Shown here: positions 8,591 to 52,060 of the stretch, piece by piece
Numbering within the stretch: the stretch's first letter is position 1
Layout: each line of letters begins with the position of its first letter
Assembly: GCA_964612105.1 (NCBI GenBank)
Contig: CAZTEU010000005.1
Span: 45,039-109,038, forward strand
Direction of reading: 5' to 3'
DNA from: an uncultured Gammaproteobacteria bacterium
GTDB lineage: Bacteria > Patescibacteriota > Patescibacteriia > Magasanikbacterales > UBA922
DNA length: 64,000 nt
The notes under the pieces: generated by a model
The model's input: only the letters and a program-made list of their open reading frames with translations
What the model was told of the DNA's origin: nothing
Database searches by the model: none
Position numbers and translations under genes: made by a program

Positions 8591-8679
8591 TAGACAAAAA
8601 GGTATGGGAGCGAACGAATCTTGTTTCTACGCCCCCTCAACCCCGCCCCAGATGGGACTAGTGTGGGACGGCGAGGCTA

Positions 8680-8916
8680 CTAACCCCTACTCGTGGTGTT
8701 GCTGTTCCAGACGAGGTCGAAGACCAGCGCCAGGAATAGGCTCATCGTGCAGATGCAGAACAGCACGATGCCGGTGTCGAACATCATGTGCTCGAAACCG
8801 TTCAGCCTGATACCATTGCAGCTGATGGCTGCACTTCGGTACATCGCGGATGCACCACCCACGATGAACAGAACTATGCAACCGATGAAGCAAGAACCAA
8901 ACAGCTTCCAGAACAT
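8680..8916 (-). CDS. small membrane protein (78 aa), island A gene 1
   Basis: Two hydrophobic helices; AAGGAGGGGAAA immediately upstream of ATG (rc of 8917-8932). Confidence 0.6.
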   Translation of the reverse strand: MFWKLFGSCFIGCIVLFIVGGASAMYRSAAISCNGIRLNGFEHMMFDTGIVLFCICTMSLFLALVFDLVWNSNTTSRG

Positions 8917-8990
8917 TTTCCCCTCCTTGAGGAATAGGTAACCTTACGGTCACCAGCGATAAGTACGTTCGCTCAACCTTTCTATCTAGT

Positions 8991-9040
8991 ATAGATTGTA
9001 AAGAGTTTTTGTTTTACCAAACAAAGAAGTGACGGGAGTG
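8991..9040 (+). repeat. intergenic repeat copy 1 (TTGTAAAGAGTTTTTGTTTT ... AAGAAGTGACGGGAGTGAA)
   Basis: Near-identical 20-mer plus related purine-rich 19-mer also at 9576-9628; third inverted partial copy at 9955-9975. Confidence 0.7.
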
Positions 9041-9084
9041 AATTGGATTCAGACTCGCCACCTCGCAGGCTCCTTCTCCTGCGA

Positions 9085-9498
9085 TCAGCGACGGCCCGTG
9101 TGTTGCTCGTCTGCGATCGTCGCCACCCCGGCGAACAGGATAGCGACACTGATGAGCCCAAGGATGGCCCACACCGTCGCCTCTGGATTCAGCACCATCT
9201 GGGCGCTGAATATTCCGCCGTACATGACGGCGGTGAAAACCATCCCAGCGAAGCTCGCCAACCAGACGAACATCCCCGTAACCAGGATTACCATCCCATC
9301 CCAGCGGGAGAAGGTCGACAGGTTGCAGATGCAACCCAAACCAGCCGCCACGAAGATGAAGGCGCCGATCAACAGCGCCAATGTCGCGAACTCGAGGAGG
9401 AACGGCAGGGTGAACACCCAGCCGAACACCTTCATGGCCACGCCCATGATGGTCGCGACTAGAGCCAAACTGACCGTCGGGATATCAAAGAAACGCAT
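9085..9498 (-). CDS. polytopic small membrane protein (137 aa), island A gene 2
   Basis: Four hydrophobic segments; CAAGGAGGAGAAAATG upstream. Confidence 0.6.
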   Translation of the reverse strand: MRFFDIPTVSLALVATIMGVAMKVFGWVFTLPFLLEFATLALLIGAFIFVAAGLGCICNLSTFSRWDGMVILVTGMFVWLASFAGMVFTAVMYGGIFSAQMVLNPEATVWAILGLISVAILFAGVATIADEQHTGRR

Positions 9499-9575
9499 TT
9501 TCTCCTCCTTGCTCGTCTACTGACGAGCTGTAGGCGTTTCGTCCAAAATTCACTCCACTTCTTTATTTGGTATAA

Positions 9576-9628
9576 GTTGTAAAGAGTTTTTGTTTTTCTA
9601 CTAAACAAGAAAGCGAGGAGGTGAACAT
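9576..9628 (+). repeat. intergenic repeat copy 2 (TTGTAAAGAGTTTTTGTTTTT ... AGAAAGCGAGGAGGTGAA)
   Basis: See copy 1. Confidence 0.7.
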
Positions 9629-9683
9629 AGTACGTTACAACCCCTCGCTGGAAACTGCTCCACAGGAAAAGGGTTGAAAGATC

Positions 9684-9920
9684 TCACTCGACGTCGTTGC
9701 ACACCGAGCGCACGGGCTCCTCATCGCTGTACCAGCCGAGGGGGGCTGCATAAACGACGAGGCCACCGATGCTCCCGAGGGAGGCCAGGGACAGACCCAG
9801 AATGGCCGTCTCCACCCGCCCCGCATCAGGGACGAGGAACAGGCCGGTGGCGAAGAGCCCCAGACCCACGAGGAGGAGGATGAAGAAACAGTGGGAATCA
9901 CGATCACGGCGACTACGCAT
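9684..9920 (-). CDS. small membrane protein (78 aa), island A gene 3
   Basis: Two hydrophobic helices; GGAG 8 nt upstream of ATG; TG-extended -10 promoter at 10027-10040. Confidence 0.5.
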   Translation of the reverse strand: MRSRRDRDSHCFFILLLVGLGLFATGLFLVPDAGRVETAILGLSLASLGSIGGLVVYAAPLGWYSDEEPVRSVCNDVE

Positions 9921-9954
9921 GGCAAACTCCAGCCTAGGTTACTTGAACGACGAT

Positions 9955-9975
9955 GTGTCGGACTTGTTCACCTCG
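9955..9975 (-). repeat. inverted partial repeat copy 3 (rc: AAGAAAGCGAGGTGAACA)
   Basis: Reverse complement matches purine-rich half of copy 2; lies about 40 nt upstream of island A gene 3. Confidence 0.6.
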
Positions 9976-10026
9976 CTTTCTTACTTAGTATATTTTAAGG
10001 TACTACTATCCTATTTTACCAACACA

Positions 10027-10040
10027 GTATTATAGCACAA
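10027..10040 (-). promoter_or_regulatory. TG-extended -10 promoter (TTGTGCTATAAT) pointing into island A
   Basis: Identical 13-mer to 2700-2713 and 38317-38330. Confidence 0.5.
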
Positions 10041-10042
10041 AA

Positions 10043-10070
10043 AACCCCTTTTGTCAAGGGGTTTTTATGG
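10043..10070. terminator. bidirectional terminator AAAAACCCCTTTTGTCAAGGGGTTTTT
   Basis: 10-bp perfect stem, loop TTGTC; related hairpin at 21637-21665. Confidence 0.8.
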
Positions 10071-10102
10071 TTTTTTGGCTTATTTTAGCTAAATTGTATA
10101 CT

Positions 10103-21610: not shown

Positions 21611-21636
21611 TTCGTCAAAAACTATATACTAAAATA

Positions 21637-21665
21637 TCCCTTTTGTCAAGGGATACTTTTTATTC
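21637..21665. terminator. terminator hairpin ATCCCTTTTGTCAAGGGAT + T-run
   Basis: Shares CCCTTTTGTCAAGGG core with 10043-10070. Confidence 0.7.
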
Positions 21666-23726: not shown

Positions 23727-23794
23727 ACTGAGTTATTGTACGGGATTTTTGTAATAAAAACAAAAAAACACCATTTTGGGTGTTTCTGGTCCGC

Positions 23795-24100
23795 TGGCTC
23801 GACCACTACTCCGTAGAGTGTGGCCAAGCCAGAGGACATGTTCTACCTCTCCTTCTGTGAACGTACAAACCGTCGTCGTGCTTTCGCAACGATTTCGGAA
23901 ATACGCATGAGTTCCTTGAGTCGACTGAGATCAACCCTGTTCGCTTGCCTTTTCGGTGTTTCAACCTTACCCAGGTATGAAACACCTGGACGATCAAAAC
24001 GAGTCTCTCCGTATGGTCCCCCCATGACTGGCCTCCTGATTGTGCTTCGTTTCTATGGGTTTTTATATCACTGTAGGACATGTCTGTCAATTTAAAAACA
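23795..24100. other. GC-rich micro-island C
   Basis: G+C-rich segment between two AAAAACACC...GGTGTTTT hairpins. Confidence 0.65.
23843..24025 (-). CDS. hypothetical highly basic 60-aa protein, island C
   Basis: AGGAGG 6 nt upstream of ATG; overlapping antisense ORFs lack RBS. Confidence 0.45.
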   Translation of the reverse strand: MGGPYGETRFDRPGVSYLGKVETPKRQANRVDLSRLKELMRISEIVAKARRRFVRSQKER

Positions 24101-24130
24101 AAAAAACACCCTTACAGGTGTTTTATTTTG

Positions 24131-24147
24131 TGCTCCCGACAGGAATA
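24131..24147. repeat. 17-nt direct repeat of tRNA-Arg 3' end (GTGCTCCCGACAGGAAT)
   Basis: Exact match to 24208-24224 inside the tRNA gene, about 60 nt away; att-like duplication. Confidence 0.75.
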
Positions 24148-24210
24148 CTGAGGTGTCCCTAGCTGGAATCACTCACATAAAAAAGTGTGCAAGCACACTT
24201 TTTTGCGTTC

Positions 24211-24282
24211 GTGCTCCCGACAGGAATCGAACCTATACCGATGGCTCCGCAAGCCACTGTTCTATCCATTAAACTACGGGAG
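24211..24282 (-). tRNA. tRNA-Arg (anticodon GCG by manual fold)
   Basis: rc folds as cloverleaf: acceptor GCTCCCG/CGGGAGC, anticodon stem GTGGC/GCCAT, loop TTGCGGA, T-loop TTCGATT; 72 nt, no encoded CCA. Confidence 0.8.
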
Positions 24283-24338
24283 CTTGATTGTTATCAACGC
24301 GAAAATTATATACCAAAAAACAGGTAGTGTCAACCTGT

Positions 24339-24842
24339 TTAATGAAACCTCCACTTCCTAGCGAAAGTGTCAGCATGAGGTTCGTTCTCTTTGTCTAGGT
24401 CTTCTTCTAGGTAGTGGCGTAGTGTTTTACGTATTTCTATTGGATTGTTATCCATAAGAGGCACTCTTAGCAAAGGACGTACGTTGGATTTTGTATCAAA
24501 GAATAGCATTTTTACTTCTGGTGGGTCATATATAATGTAAAAATCATATAATTCACTATATGTGTAAAACCTGTTTCCTACAATTACACCAAGGCTGGAT
24601 ATAGCAAAGGAAACATCCATTGGGTCTTGTTTGCCTTGTACAAACAATATAATTCCAGCTAATACAATAACAAGAGCAAATAGAAAGTTACCACTTATTA
24701 CTCCATAGAGCACTAAAAGTGACATGAGAATACCAACAACAACGTACCATGCCATTGGACGCTCATGTTTTTCGAACTCTTTTACTGTCCACTGATGCTC
24801 TATGTCACCAATGAGTGTAGATTCTGTTATTGCTTTTGGCAT
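24339..24842 (-). CDS. hypothetical membrane protein (start taken at MPKAITE)
   Basis: ORF track 24339..24917; two TM helices. Confidence 0.45.
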   Translation of the reverse strand: MPKAITESTLIGDIEHQWTVKEFEKHERPMAWYVVVGILMSLLVLYGVISGNFLFALVIVLAGIILFVQGKQDPMDVSFAISSLGVIVGNRFYTYSELYDFYIIYDPPEVKMLFFDTKSNVRPLLRVPLMDNNPIEIRKTLRHYLEEDLDKENEPHADTFARKWRFH

Positions 24843-33569: not shown

Positions 33570-33600
33570 ATCATGTACACAAAAGCCCCCATAAACTGGG
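33570..33600. terminator. terminator AAAAGCCCCCATAAACTGGGGGCGTTT
   Basis: 6-bp GC stem after topA stop. Confidence 0.7.
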
Positions 33601-33869
33601 GGCGTTTGTGTAGCGGAGAGGAGGTAACCTCAATGCCTGTGGTAATATAAAGGCCCTCAACCCGCTACAAAATACAGGATATCAGAAAAAAGGAGAAAAT
33701 ACAAGAAAAAGAAAAGTCCCGAATAATTTCGGGATTTTTCTCGGCCTTGGGATTACCCTACCTCTATATTACCTACGGACAATTATAGCAATAAAATATA
33801 GATTTGTCAAGTAGGAGTGTAAATAAATCGGAAAAATAAAAAATCATCCTTTTTTAGGATGAATCGTTT

Positions 33870-35060
33870 CACCCTGCCCAGCGTTTCTTGCTGAGCAGGG
33901 TGTGCCTCCTTTTTTGGTAAGGTCATGAGAGACCGAGTGTCCGAGGAACCAAGTTCCACTACCCGAGAGCCAAGGAACCTAGCATCCTAGGGCTGACGCT
34001 TGCTACGGACGAGAAAACGAGAGCGGTCACCCCAGCCGCCGTCAAACCAGCGGAGATAAGTTAAGAGGTGCTGACCGTTGCCGTCGCTCCAGACACACGG
34101 GCAGCCCCGGTCACCGTTCAGGTCCTGCCAGACGCTTCCGAGCGCGACCAGTGGCCATTCCAGACCGACTTCTTGATGTTCGGCGCAGTATACGAGCAAA
34201 TCGCGCAACGAGGCGACCTCGTAGCCTTGTTTCTTGATCTCATCCAGCACTGCTGTGGTGTGCAAACGCTTGTTGAAATGCAAAACCTCGAGACTGTACT
34301 CGTAGTCAGGCTGGTCATCCGGAAGGGGGAAATTCTCGGTAGTGATGTTATATTCGACGTAACCGAACCCACATGCCCCAATGAGCTGTTGTAATTCATC
34401 CGGAGAGGTCTCTTCATCAGAAACGGTCTTCTTACGACGGACCAGGAAACGGTAGTAGTTGATCCACCTGCTCTCAAGCCAGTCGAAATCCAGACGCCGA
34501 CCGTTTCTATCACGCCAGACAAACGGACAACACTGGCCACCGTGCACATTCTGCCAAGTACTCCCGAGTGCGGACAATGGCCAGTCCAGGCCGACTTTGG
34601 AATGTTCGGCGCAGTATACGAGCAAATCGCGCAACGAGGCGACCTCGTAGCCCTGCTTCTTGATCTCATCCAGCACTTCCGTGGTGGTCAGACCCTTGTT
34701 GAGGTGCAGAACCTCGAGACTGTACTCGTAGTCAGGCTGGTCATCCTCGAGCGGGAATTTCTCGCCCATGATGTTATCATCCACTGAGTGGAACTTGCAT
34801 GCTCCAATGAGCTGTTGCAGTTCGTCCGAGATAGGCACTTCGACCAGCTTGTCGAACCGCCCTTCCACAATCGCTTGGAGCGCTTTTTTGACCAGAGCTG
34901 GGTCGTACGGGCACCCCCTCTTCTGCCGAAGCAACCTCTTGATCTCGTGGAGCTGACCATCAATCTCGAAATACAGATCGCCTGCAACGCTAAACGCCAT
35001 GACAATCTCCTCTTTTCTAAGCTACAAATGCCAACGCACTCGCGCCAACACTCTTGCCTG
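33870..35060. other. GC-rich micro-island D
   Basis: Sharp compositional shift; single long minus-strand ORF with RBS, multiple overlapping antisense ORFs typical of high-GC DNA. Confidence 0.7.
33987..35000 (-). CDS. hypothetical 337-aa protein built from two tandem ~150-aa repeats (unrecognised domain), island D
   Basis: AAGAGGAGA upstream of ATG; internal repeat SDELQQLIGAC.F...DDQPDYEYSLEVLH.NK..TT.VLDEIKKQGYEVASLRDLLVYCAEH..VGL.WPL.ALGS.WQ....G..CP.VW.D.NG present twice. Confidence 0.6.
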   Translation of the reverse strand: MAFSVAGDLYFEIDGQLHEIKRLLRQKRGCPYDPALVKKALQAIVEGRFDKLVEVPISDELQQLIGACKFHSVDDNIMGEKFPLEDDQPDYEYSLEVLHLNKGLTTTEVLDEIKKQGYEVASLRDLLVYCAEHSKVGLDWPLSALGSTWQNVHGGQCCPFVWRDRNGRRLDFDWLESRWINYYRFLVRRKKTVSDEETSPDELQQLIGACGFGYVEYNITTENFPLPDDQPDYEYSLEVLHFNKRLHTTAVLDEIKKQGYEVASLRDLLVYCAEHQEVGLEWPLVALGSVWQDLNGDRGCPCVWSDGNGQHLLTYLRWFDGGWGDRSRFLVRSKRQP

Positions 35061-51489: not shown

Positions 51490-52060
51490 TAGCAAAACAA
51501 AAAAACACCATATTAGTGTTCTTTTGAATTGGGCCGAGATTTTGTATAGGTACTCGGCCGTTTAACCTATGTTGTCGTACTCCCCTTACTCGGTAGGCAT
51601 CTCGACATCGCTGACGTCGACACCTAGAGCCAAGGCGCATACTTGGTAGTCCGCGACGCGATTCTGGTAGATCGACCCTCCAACGCATCGCACGAAGCGC
51701 GTAACGAAGTCCTTGAACCCGTGGTCCAGGTCCATGGCAGTACAGATGATGTGAGATGCCGCATACCTGAAGTCTTCGTCGACCATACCATACATGAAGT
51801 TCTGCAGGGCACTCTCGCAGAGTCCACCACACAGTGAGTCAGCCAGAGGGATGTCCTTCCAGGCGATGTAGGTACGGTTATTGTAGCCACGTTCCTCGTG
51901 AAAGAGTGTTTCATATGAGACCCCCTTCTCTTGAATCGCCGCTTTATTGAGGAGCCAAACCTTCAGACACTTGCTGACCTGGGCTTGCAGATACTGATTC
52001 ATTTCCATCTCCTTGTAAAGAGCCTCTATTTTGTCCTCCACCACGCCTTTTTGTGATTTC
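51490..52060. other. GC-rich micro-island F
   Basis: Compositional shift bounded by hairpins (AACACCATATTAGTGTT, GGCCGAG...CTCGGCC). Confidence 0.65.
51586..52002 (-). CDS. hypothetical 138-aa Cys-containing protein, island F (start at MNQYLQ after AAGGAG)
   Basis: CAAGGAGATGGAAATG; ORF track GTG start further upstream lacks RBS. Confidence 0.5.
   Translation of the reverse strand: MNQYLQAQVSKCLKVWLLNKAAIQEKGVSYETLFHEERGYNNRTYIAWKDIPLADSLCGGLCESALQNFMYGMVDEDFRYAASHIICTAMDLDHGFKDFVTRFVRCVGGSIYQNRVADYQVCALALGVDVSDVEMPTE

Follow-up and report, generated by a model that had tools for sequence, protein, structure and literature searches.

The tRNA-Arg locus and its repeat

We analysed a 64-kb stretch of contig CAZTEU010000005.1 (hereafter the window), a bacterial chromosome segment with 37.8% GC that carries the housekeeping genes pheST, clpB, radA, recG, der, pth, dprA, topA, relA/spoT, parAB, aspS and ribosomal protein genes. 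The named homologues of its RecG protein are labelled Candidatus Magasanikbacteria or Patescibacteria. The element under study lies between a tRNA-Arg gene and recG, where a 17-bp repeat is a partial duplication of the 3' end of tRNA-Arg(GCG). The 17-mer (GTGCTCCCGACAGGAAT) has exactly two occurrences in the window (24130-24146 and 24211-24227), compared with a mean of 0.11 matches in shuffled sequence even with 3 mismatches tolerated. A first-pass annotation of the window had read this duplicate as the scar of an integrative element that delivered the neighbouring GC-rich island; the duplicate itself is confirmed, at coordinates that differ by 1-3 nt from those first given (24131-24147 and 24208-24224). 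Exact direct repeats of at least 17 nt form eight pairs in the whole window, of which seven fall in GC-rich islands or at the tRNA-Arg locus and one resembles a chance pair.

The tRNA-Arg gene (anticodon GCG; 24211-24283, minus strand) is called by ARAGORN and matches the Rfam family RF00005 with 67.4 bits. Its lower window coordinate is 24211 or 24212 depending on the caller (ARAGORN or Rfam), the other end is 24283, and CCA is not encoded. The proximal repeat (24211-24227, minus strand) is the 3' end of this tRNA, read as ATTCCTGTCGGGAGCAC on the minus strand, and the 17-mer spans the end of the T-loop, the 3' strands of the T-stem and the acceptor stem, the discriminator base and one further base. 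The distal repeat (24130-24146, minus strand) is a partial copy of the tRNA 3' end outside any tRNA gene, as neither ARAGORN nor Rfam calls a tRNA there, and the identity between the two copies breaks off sharply at the T-loop. The tRNA promoter (TTGACA, 17 nt, TATAAT; 24305-24340, minus strand) has 12/12 matches in a consensus scan, with its -35 hexamer inside the loop of the upstream gene's terminator hairpin. This compact terminator-promoter arrangement recurs in the genome: hairpins with the TTGACA of the next promoter in the loop, followed 17 nt on by TATAAT or TATAGT, are found at 10045-10075, 21621-21655 and 24305-24340 (minus strand).

The segment between the repeats is 64 nt long (24147-24210, minus strand) and forms an 81-bp unit together with one repeat. 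It has 43.8% GC and a single occurrence in the window. The first-pass annotation had seen about 60 bp with a small hairpin between the copies, and this description holds. The hairpin, T1 (24179-24204), lies directly after the tRNA and is a perfect 12-bp stem of the bidirectional terminator type with A and T tracts (AAAAAAGTGTGC-AA-GCACACTTTTTT). The minimum-free-energy fold places a second hairpin, H2, at 24141-24160 (minus strand; AGGGACAC / GUAUUCCU), in which the end of the spacer is base-paired to the opening nucleotides of the distal copy, so that the 3' arm of H2 is the start of the distal repeat. H2 could be an RNA hairpin or what is left of an att core. A 126-nt stretch of the locus folds better than shuffled sequences (z = -3.6). 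A possible third, degenerate copy of the tRNA end within the 64-nt segment (GATTCCAGCTAGGGACAC) was rejected, as 438 of 5000 shuffles reach its score and many equal matches exist across the window; the resemblance arises because the segment pairs with the distal copy in H2.

On the minus strand, the locus therefore reads, by position, as tRNA promoter, tRNA, GAACGC, T1, a 32-nt spacer ending in AGGGACAC, the distal 17-mer, AAAATA and a terminator hairpin, T2. Beyond T2 follow a promoter-like site, AGGAGG, an open reading frame (ORF) of 60 amino acids (24025 to 23843), a GC-rich hairpin of ~17 bp, a third terminator (T3), and the recG leader and start codon (23726). The GC-rich stretch between T2 and T3 is called island C below.

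Two alleles in one population

The 81-bp unit is polymorphic within the population from which the window derives. Contigs of the same organism were found via the 60-aa protein and a neighbouring 192-aa protein, giving 14 contigs from independent marine assemblies that are 99.8-100% identical. The source samples are SAMN10231899-924, SAMN11854481/89 and JGI 3300007508, 3300007759, 3300008954 and 3300009008. The window arrangement is the long allele and is present in 12 of the 14 contigs (L027-L033 and L155-L158 among its carriers). The two others, L034 and L036, miss exactly 81 bp, namely the 64 nt and one 17-mer, so that the tRNA continues straight into AAAATA, T2 and island C. The first-pass annotation had proposed a search for an empty site at the tRNA-Arg locus, and such an attB-like site, with a single 17-mer followed by T2, does exist in the same population; it is compatible both with excision or deletion and with a site that was never occupied. 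Contigs with the long allele vary at 24164 by a T/C single-nucleotide polymorphism (SNP), and L034 and L036 have no SNP in common.

The 17-nt repeat is shorter than the k-mers commonly used by assemblers; thus, we take the 81-bp indel as real and an assembly artefact as unlikely. Several contigs from other samples terminate inside the stretch, consistent with a branch in the assembly graph. Island C is kept in every contig of both alleles, and no same-organism contig without it was found among those fetched by the 60-aa protein or the 192-aa gene.

The locus in related genomes

Relatives were sought through RecG. The best match among species-representative genomes was just 45% identical, and a large protein database yielded homologues at 63-73% identity, whose contigs were fetched. 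Apart from one contig (P0005), no further RecG homologue was more than 64-65% identical to the clade of the window, L159, L161 and L163. The synteny is conserved, with lytR, a gene of 167 or 192 amino acids, tRNA-Arg(GCG), a variable stretch, recG, a second variable stretch and radA, and tRNA-Arg stands at the same syntenic place in relatives L159-L168. The anticodon of this conserved tRNA is GCG in L159, L161, L163, L165, L166, L168 and the window, not the ACG usual in bacteria. CCA is unencoded in the tRNA-Arg of the window, L159, L161 and L165, and encoded in L163 and L168.

The interval between tRNA-Arg and recG is a hotspot for gene turnover, as its contents differ between relatives. It holds a terminator alone in L165 and L166 (RecG 65% identical to that of the window) and in L168 (63-65%), a 126-aa ORF without homologue in L163 (68%), ~1.1 kb of GC-rich ORFs in L159 and L160 (73%), where HAD and GDSL genes lie upstream of the tRNA, a second tRNA-end copy followed by an aldehyde dehydrogenase gene on the opposite strand in L161 and L162 (70%), and a GIY-YIG gene with a 199-aa gene in the P0005 contig (67%). 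Different genes follow tRNA-Arg in each relative examined, and the recG-radA interval, which has no tRNA, is equally variable. The GIY-YIG endonuclease gene of the P0005 contig and the HAD hydrolase and GDSL lipase genes of L159 (2721-4650) all lie between the 167-aa gene and recG and have a GC content above the host's, which again points to an interval that takes up foreign DNA. L159 is also GC-rich after tRNA-Arg and between recG and radA; in a comparison by gene calls alone, its called ORFs there differ in number and size from those of the window.

Among the relatives examined, the duplication is common to the window and L161/L162 only. In the latter, the layout is tRNA, GAAAAC, a hairpin (AAAAAAACGTGC-TA-GCACGTTTTTTT), ~35 nt, the copy (TT[T]CTGTCGAGGGCAC-GA) and a second terminator. 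The spacing of the copies from start to start is 79 nt in L161/L162 and 81 nt in the window, with inserts of ~63 and 64 nt, respectively. The inserts of the window and L161 are alike beyond chance, as none of 5000 shuffles reaches the score of the whole insert and 9 of 5000 reach that of the spacer alone. Between the two, T1 shows compensatory changes at three pairs, and a 9-bp hairpin read from the L161 sequence corresponds to H2. The same layout and the similar inserts indicate that the structure is older than the lineage split, i.e., that the duplication predates the separation of the window organism from the L161 species.

Each copy nevertheless carries the acceptor 3' strand of its own tRNA, CGGGAGC in the window and CGAGGGC in L161. 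The L161 copy differs from its tRNA at one base (C to T), and this T pairs with a species-specific A in the small hairpin. In L161, the repeat also continues for ~11 nt after the tRNA ends and reaches the A tract in each of the two terminators (27 nt, 85% identity). The tRNA-end copy is absent in L159, L163, L165 and L168. L159 is the nearest relative by RecG (72.8% identity to the window, against 70.6% for L161) and yet lacks the copy, indicating that the copy was lost repeatedly or gained more than once. The first-pass annotation had held that a conserved duplication with no mobile-element association would count against integration. This is found in part: L161 and L162 share the same small duplication and a homologous insert, with no mobile-element genes.

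Search for an integrase or mobile partner

No integrase or transposase was found among the ~30 ORFs of the window tested against Pfam, and the called genes around the tRNA-Arg locus gave no integrase match in Pfam. Apart from the tRNA itself, the region between and around the repeats has no match in Rfam, even at a permissive E-value. The 17-mer has 0 matches in viral contigs, and two pieces of the 64-nt segment have none there either.

In the metagenome collection, the 17-mer is present at 118 loci, all of them ordinary tRNA genes of varied organisms or chance matches in coding DNA. The single locus with two direct copies of the 17-mer is a pair of complete tandem tRNA-Arg genes. An attP-type junction, in which the 17-mer would stand between ..CACCTCAGT and GAACGC.., does not occur at any of these 118 loci; this is a weak test, as the organism's own samples lie outside that collection. 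An attP-bearing element was thus sought with the 17-mer and the two segment pieces and rejected as a candidate, as the viral and metagenome searches returned just ordinary tRNA genes and chance matches. The first-pass annotation had proposed a search for circular elements that carry the 17-mer as attP, and no such attP context was found in the collections scanned.

Island C and its terminators

Island C (23786-24056) has 51.7% GC compared with ~37% in the flanking genes, and it looks like a self-contained cassette with a promoter-like site, a ribosome-binding site, a 60-aa ORF and a terminator. The putative promoter (TTGACA, 17 nt, TG-n-TATAAA; 24061-24089, minus strand) is read from the sequence, and the consensus scan omits it since its -10 element ends in A. 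The possibly coding ORF (23843-24025, minus strand) has AGGAGG at 24032-24037, 6 nt before the ATG, in agreement with the very basic 60-aa protein with its own Shine-Dalgarno sequence that was first described. The predicted protein has a pI of 11.2 and 16 K+R against 7 D+E. A GC-rich hairpin of ~17 bp (23789-23837, minus strand; transcript fold) follows the ORF and lies in its 3' untranslated region.

Island C may encode a small protein or, alternatively, a structured RNA. Searches of 5.8 billion proteins and of 1.84 billion representatives matched the 60-aa protein to itself alone, and it has no match in viral contigs, Pfam, PHROGs or PADLOC. In the AlphaFold prediction, made without an alignment, the N-terminal half is disordered and residues 33-59 form one helix, with a predicted local distance difference test (pLDDT) score of 73. 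The GC content at third codon positions (GC3) of the ORF is 0.43, compared with 0.62-0.81 for the ORFs of other islands and 0.22-0.32 for host genes, and codon periodicity is weak. The signs expected of a horizontally acquired GC-rich gene, namely an island-like GC3 and homologues elsewhere, are therefore lacking for this protein in those collections. The island C transcript folds far better than shuffles (z = -5.2).

The terminators on both sides of island C are a direct repeat that the first-pass annotation missed. T2 (24093-24123) comes after the distal repeat and directly follows the tRNA in the short allele, and T3 (23755-23785) is the second copy of this 31-nt terminator repeat, located a short distance before the promoter and start codon (23726) of recG. 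The two copies are 87% identical and bracket island C in a manner like a 31-nt target duplication. L159 has kept the T-rich tail of T3 as well as the recG leader. The terminator module is present once more, with 18 nt identical to T3, at 51494-51511, the 3' edge of another GC-rich island. The module consists of AAAACAAAAAAACACC, a loop and GGTGTTT, and each of its three copies stands at the edge of a GC-rich island. Its core 14-mer occurs in this organism's contigs only, among 168 fetched loci. The module could serve as a cassette end, an insertion target or a recombination site.

Island C lies 37 nt beyond the distal repeat and thus outside the segment bounded by the repeats. No further copy of the tRNA end is found beyond it, even with several mismatches allowed, and none of the five other GC-rich islands adjoins a tRNA. 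The delivery of island C at tRNA-Arg is accordingly unsupported, and the island is probably not the cargo of an element that entered there.

Similar inserts at other tRNA genes

Comparable inserts are present at other tRNA genes. For all 477 tRNAs of the fetched loci, we searched within 250 nt for an exact match of at least 13 nt to the last 22 nt of the tRNA, and this yielded 11 independent non-tandem cases with a downstream copy and 2 with an upstream copy. The inserts are 60-210 nt long, directly follow the tRNA and close with 11-21 nt that exactly repeat its T-loop-to-3'-end segment; the start of this copy is always in the T-loop or T-stem. Inserts with a terminal tRNA-end copy follow tRNA-Ser in L002 (two cases), L005, L153 and L096, tRNA-Gly and tRNA-Asp in L061/L071, tRNA-Val in L114, and tRNA-Arg in L094 and L134/L144.

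In L134, L144, L094, L153, L096 and L002, the insert holds an antisense copy able to pair with the distal copy, forming a minihelix of ~20 bp. Some inserts have the motif GGGTACTG in common, and three inserts of ~125 nt in one tRNA array are clearly related. No Rfam family matches these small inserts. In the orthologous pair L134/L144, the distal copy erodes differently at each end, an erosion that looks neutral, as for a scar.

Origin of the duplication

We tentatively interpret the duplication as an old att-type scar without an integrase, whose short allele arose by deletion between the repeats, and we put the probability of this reading a little short of even. Site-specific recombination in the T-loop would be the most likely origin, having left an attL/attR-type duplication of the tRNA end. 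The element would then have shrunk to a tiny integrase-less remnant, comprising T1 and ~32 nt that include H2 at the edge of the distal copy, and the duplication would have been present before the split from the L161 species. Occasional exchange between the copies probably keeps both alike. Recombination or replication slippage between the 17-mers may subsequently have produced the exact 81-bp deletion and thereby the short allele, with the tRNA directly before T2. Island C would be a separate cassette between the distal terminator of the tRNA and recG, in an interval of variable genes. We infer all three of the integrase origin, the deletion as source of the short allele and the homogenization of the copies.

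Several lines of evidence are consistent with a scar. The repeat has the T-loop-to-3'-end geometry, an inverted repeat marks the inner edge of the distal copy, a terminator comes right after an intact tRNA, a single-repeat allele exists, and the site is a hotspot. The attL/attR signature reported in the first-pass annotation stands with respect to the repeat geometry and the single-repeat allele; an integrase, foreign DNA between the repeats and an attP junction were not found in the ORFs, segment and collections searched. The mobile-element integration at tRNAs is a documented source of partial tRNA fragments (PMC9897764, citing Williams 2002).

Other observations weigh against a scar. The repeats enclose 64 nt only, and no integrase or transposase accompanies them among the ORFs tested. 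The segment between them does not look foreign, as it has a counterpart in L161 and a partial counterpart in L159, and the GC-rich island lies outside the repeats. The viral and metagenome collections provided neither an attP-type junction nor the 64-nt segment in any other setting. The textbook model derives whatever immediately follows the intact tRNA from the element. However, GAAnnn and T1 after the intact tRNA resemble the tRNA trailer of L159, which has no second copy; 5 of 2000 shuffles reach the likeness of T1 to this trailer, a test inflated by the A and T runs. The same likeness was dropped as a pointer to the ancestral allele because of this inflation. The copy tracks its own tRNA in both the window and L161, which a neutral scar should not do, and this needs gene conversion, selection or independent origins. 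The unit is also tiny and nearly equal in size in the two species (81 and 79 nt). Finally, a circle of 81 bp would be implausibly small as a recombinase substrate, so the indel is uninformative on integrase activity.

The locus shares features with known systems and departs from each of them. The attL/attR sites of tyrosine-integrase elements, such as prophages, integrative and conjugative elements and genomic islands, likewise have an intact tRNA with a direct repeat that starts in the T-loop and stops shortly after the 3' end, and their distal copy has an inverted repeat at its inner edge; an attB-like allele and a hotspot of variable genes are further points in common. In contrast to the 64 nt found here, such sites bracket kilobases including the integrase (for example ~9-23 kb and 121 kb; PMC9897764). 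The present locus also differs from them in having no integrase (ORFs tested) and no attP-like junction (collections scanned), and in its presence in two species with each copy tracking its own tRNA. Cis-mobilizable elements (CIMEs), which are att-flanked remnants of integrative elements without recombination genes, resemble the locus in their att-like flanks, the lack of an own integrase and their presence/absence polymorphism. CIMEs are kilobases long and carry genes, whereas the unit here is 81 bp, too small for excision as a circle.

Deletion between short direct repeats, by replication slippage or a RecA-independent recombination route, gives the same exact loss of one repeat with the 64 nt, and 17-nt repeats spaced 81 nt apart are favourable for it; it accounts for the loss of the copy, but not for the origin of the repeat. 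The group I introns within the tRNA genes of the same phylum are also insertions associated with a tRNA gene. They match group I models and split the tRNA at its anticodon loop (position 35/36), whereas here the tRNA is intact and the insert is downstream. A group I intron in tRNA-Arg was rejected, as the permissive Rfam search gave no match and the tRNA is uninterrupted.

The copy could instead be a functional cis-element, a reading that we consider unlikely. H2 and the copy would mimic the 3' half of the tRNA, with a T-arm-like hairpin followed by the acceptor 3' strand, and selection would keep them matched to the tRNA. Such an element would sit in the read-through transcript of the tRNA or act at the DNA level, with possible roles as a decoy or back-up site for 3'-end processing, CCA addition or a tRNA-targeting factor. 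The retention of layout and spacing in two species whose RecG proteins are 70% identical, with each copy matching its own acceptor stem, argues for selection, as do the spacers alike beyond chance and the presence of H2 in both species. The only mismatch of the L161 copy keeps a pair in the small hairpin, the 126-nt stretch folds well, and the larger inserts at other tRNAs hold antisense copies that could form minihelices with the distal copy. Nonetheless, the arrangement is limited to two species and is missing from the closest relative, L159, as well as from L163, L165 and L168, and cells of the same population lose it cleanly. No promoter is found between T1 and the copy, and T1 is a strong-looking terminator, so little transcript is expected at the copy. 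The lack of an Rfam match and the decay of the copy in the L134/L144 pair also speak against a function, and the covariation evidence from two sequences is minimal.

A recombinase-free origin likewise seems improbable to us. An ancestral tandem duplication of ~80 bp, encompassing the tRNA 3' end, terminator and spacer, would have formed by slippage or unequal exchange. The second terminator would have diverged into T2, unequal exchange would have kept the tRNA ends alike, and the short allele would be the reciprocal deletion. The extension of the L161 repeat by ~11 nt into the A tracts of both terminators suggests that T1 and T2 were once copies of each other, and the nearly equal unit lengths (81 vs 79 nt) fit such an event. 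Island C is also bracketed by duplicated native sequence, T2 and T3, suggesting that duplicative events at terminators recur here, and the exact loss of one unit is directly seen. However, T1 and T2 of the window have no stem sequence in common, and nothing is alike past the 17-mer. The left boundary falls in the T-loop here and in 10 other independent cases, which a recombinase target explains better than random slippage, and 17 nt is short for efficient exchange.

The inserts at other tRNA genes offer a further reading, to which we assign a rather low probability. The window unit would be a maintained module that co-evolves with its tRNA. Its class, as yet undescribed, would comprise structured inserts of ~60-210 nt from Patescibacteria and other bacteria, and the unit would be the smallest of them. 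These inserts could be a mobile element of minute size that targets tRNAs, or they could form a family that mimics tRNA ends. The 64-nt unit of the window has neither the antisense copy nor the GGGTACTG motif.

The full model of the first-pass annotation, with island C as the cargo or remnant of an integrative element that entered at tRNA-Arg, is very unlikely. Island C does lie 37 nt past the distal repeat, the interval downstream of tRNA-Arg is variable in all relatives, and repeated insertion at the same tRNA could in principle place an older element on the far side of a newer scar. However, island C lies outside the repeats with no further tRNA-end copy past it, both alleles retain it, and its own boundaries are T2 and T3, whose third copy marks an island far from any tRNA. 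Neither the recG-radA interval, which is just as variable, nor any of the five further GC-rich islands has a tRNA, which argues against a link to tRNA-Arg, as does the lack of an integrase among the ORFs tested. A chance match or the remains of a decayed tandem tRNA gene is effectively excluded: tandem tRNA-Arg genes with the exact 17-mer do exist (L083) and one chance 17-mer pair is present in the window, but the expected number of matches is 0.11 even with 3 mismatches, the copy stands 64 nt from the tRNA at the boundary of a population indel, nothing upstream of it is tRNA-like (ARAGORN, Rfam) with similarity ending at the T-loop, and the same arrangement is found in L161.

Other features of the window

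The window contains six GC-rich islands of ~51-54% GC compared with 38% for the genome (8567-9991, 21200-21604, 23786-24056, 33844-35074, 43342-43874 and 51524-51991). They lie between housekeeping genes, and each has a strong ribosome-binding site and at least one ORF without a match in Pfam, PHROG or PADLOC. Except for island C, the GC3 of the island ORFs is 0.62-0.81 compared with 0.22-0.32 for the host, as expected for foreign coding DNA.

Island A (8600-10050, minus strand) comprises three tandem cassettes for small hydrophobic proteins of 78, 137 and 78 amino acids. A 48-nt AT-rich repeat serves as linker (8968-9015 and 9549-9596, 81% identity), and the cassettes have in common a repeated region of ribosome-binding site and start (CAAGGAGGnGAAAATG). 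The 337-aa protein of island D (33987-35000, minus strand) has an internal duplication, with 300 nt repeated 426 nt apart at 80% identity, and a paralogue with 49% identity on the same 390-kb contig. A search of 5.8 billion proteins gave just three further homologues, including one with a single repeat at 84% identity. The stretch at 33600-33830 (minus strand), located between island D and the topA end, has a consensus-like promoter (TTGACA...TATAAT) followed by ~100 nt, two hairpins and T tracts, with no ORF. It may be a small RNA gene; no Rfam match was obtained at gathering scores.

Biological implications

The locus provides a case of an att-like tRNA scar that would be long-lived in a reduced Patescibacteria genome and may still be turning over by repeat-mediated deletion within one natural population. 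The tRNA-Arg-to-recG interval is marked as a place where these bacteria swap small genes, and the attractive but unsupported link between the scar and island C is corrected. The unusual feature of an otherwise known kind of structure is the co-variation of copy and tRNA across species. The finding would carry greater weight if this co-variation and the mini-inserts at other tRNAs reflect a function or a new, very small tRNA-targeting element.

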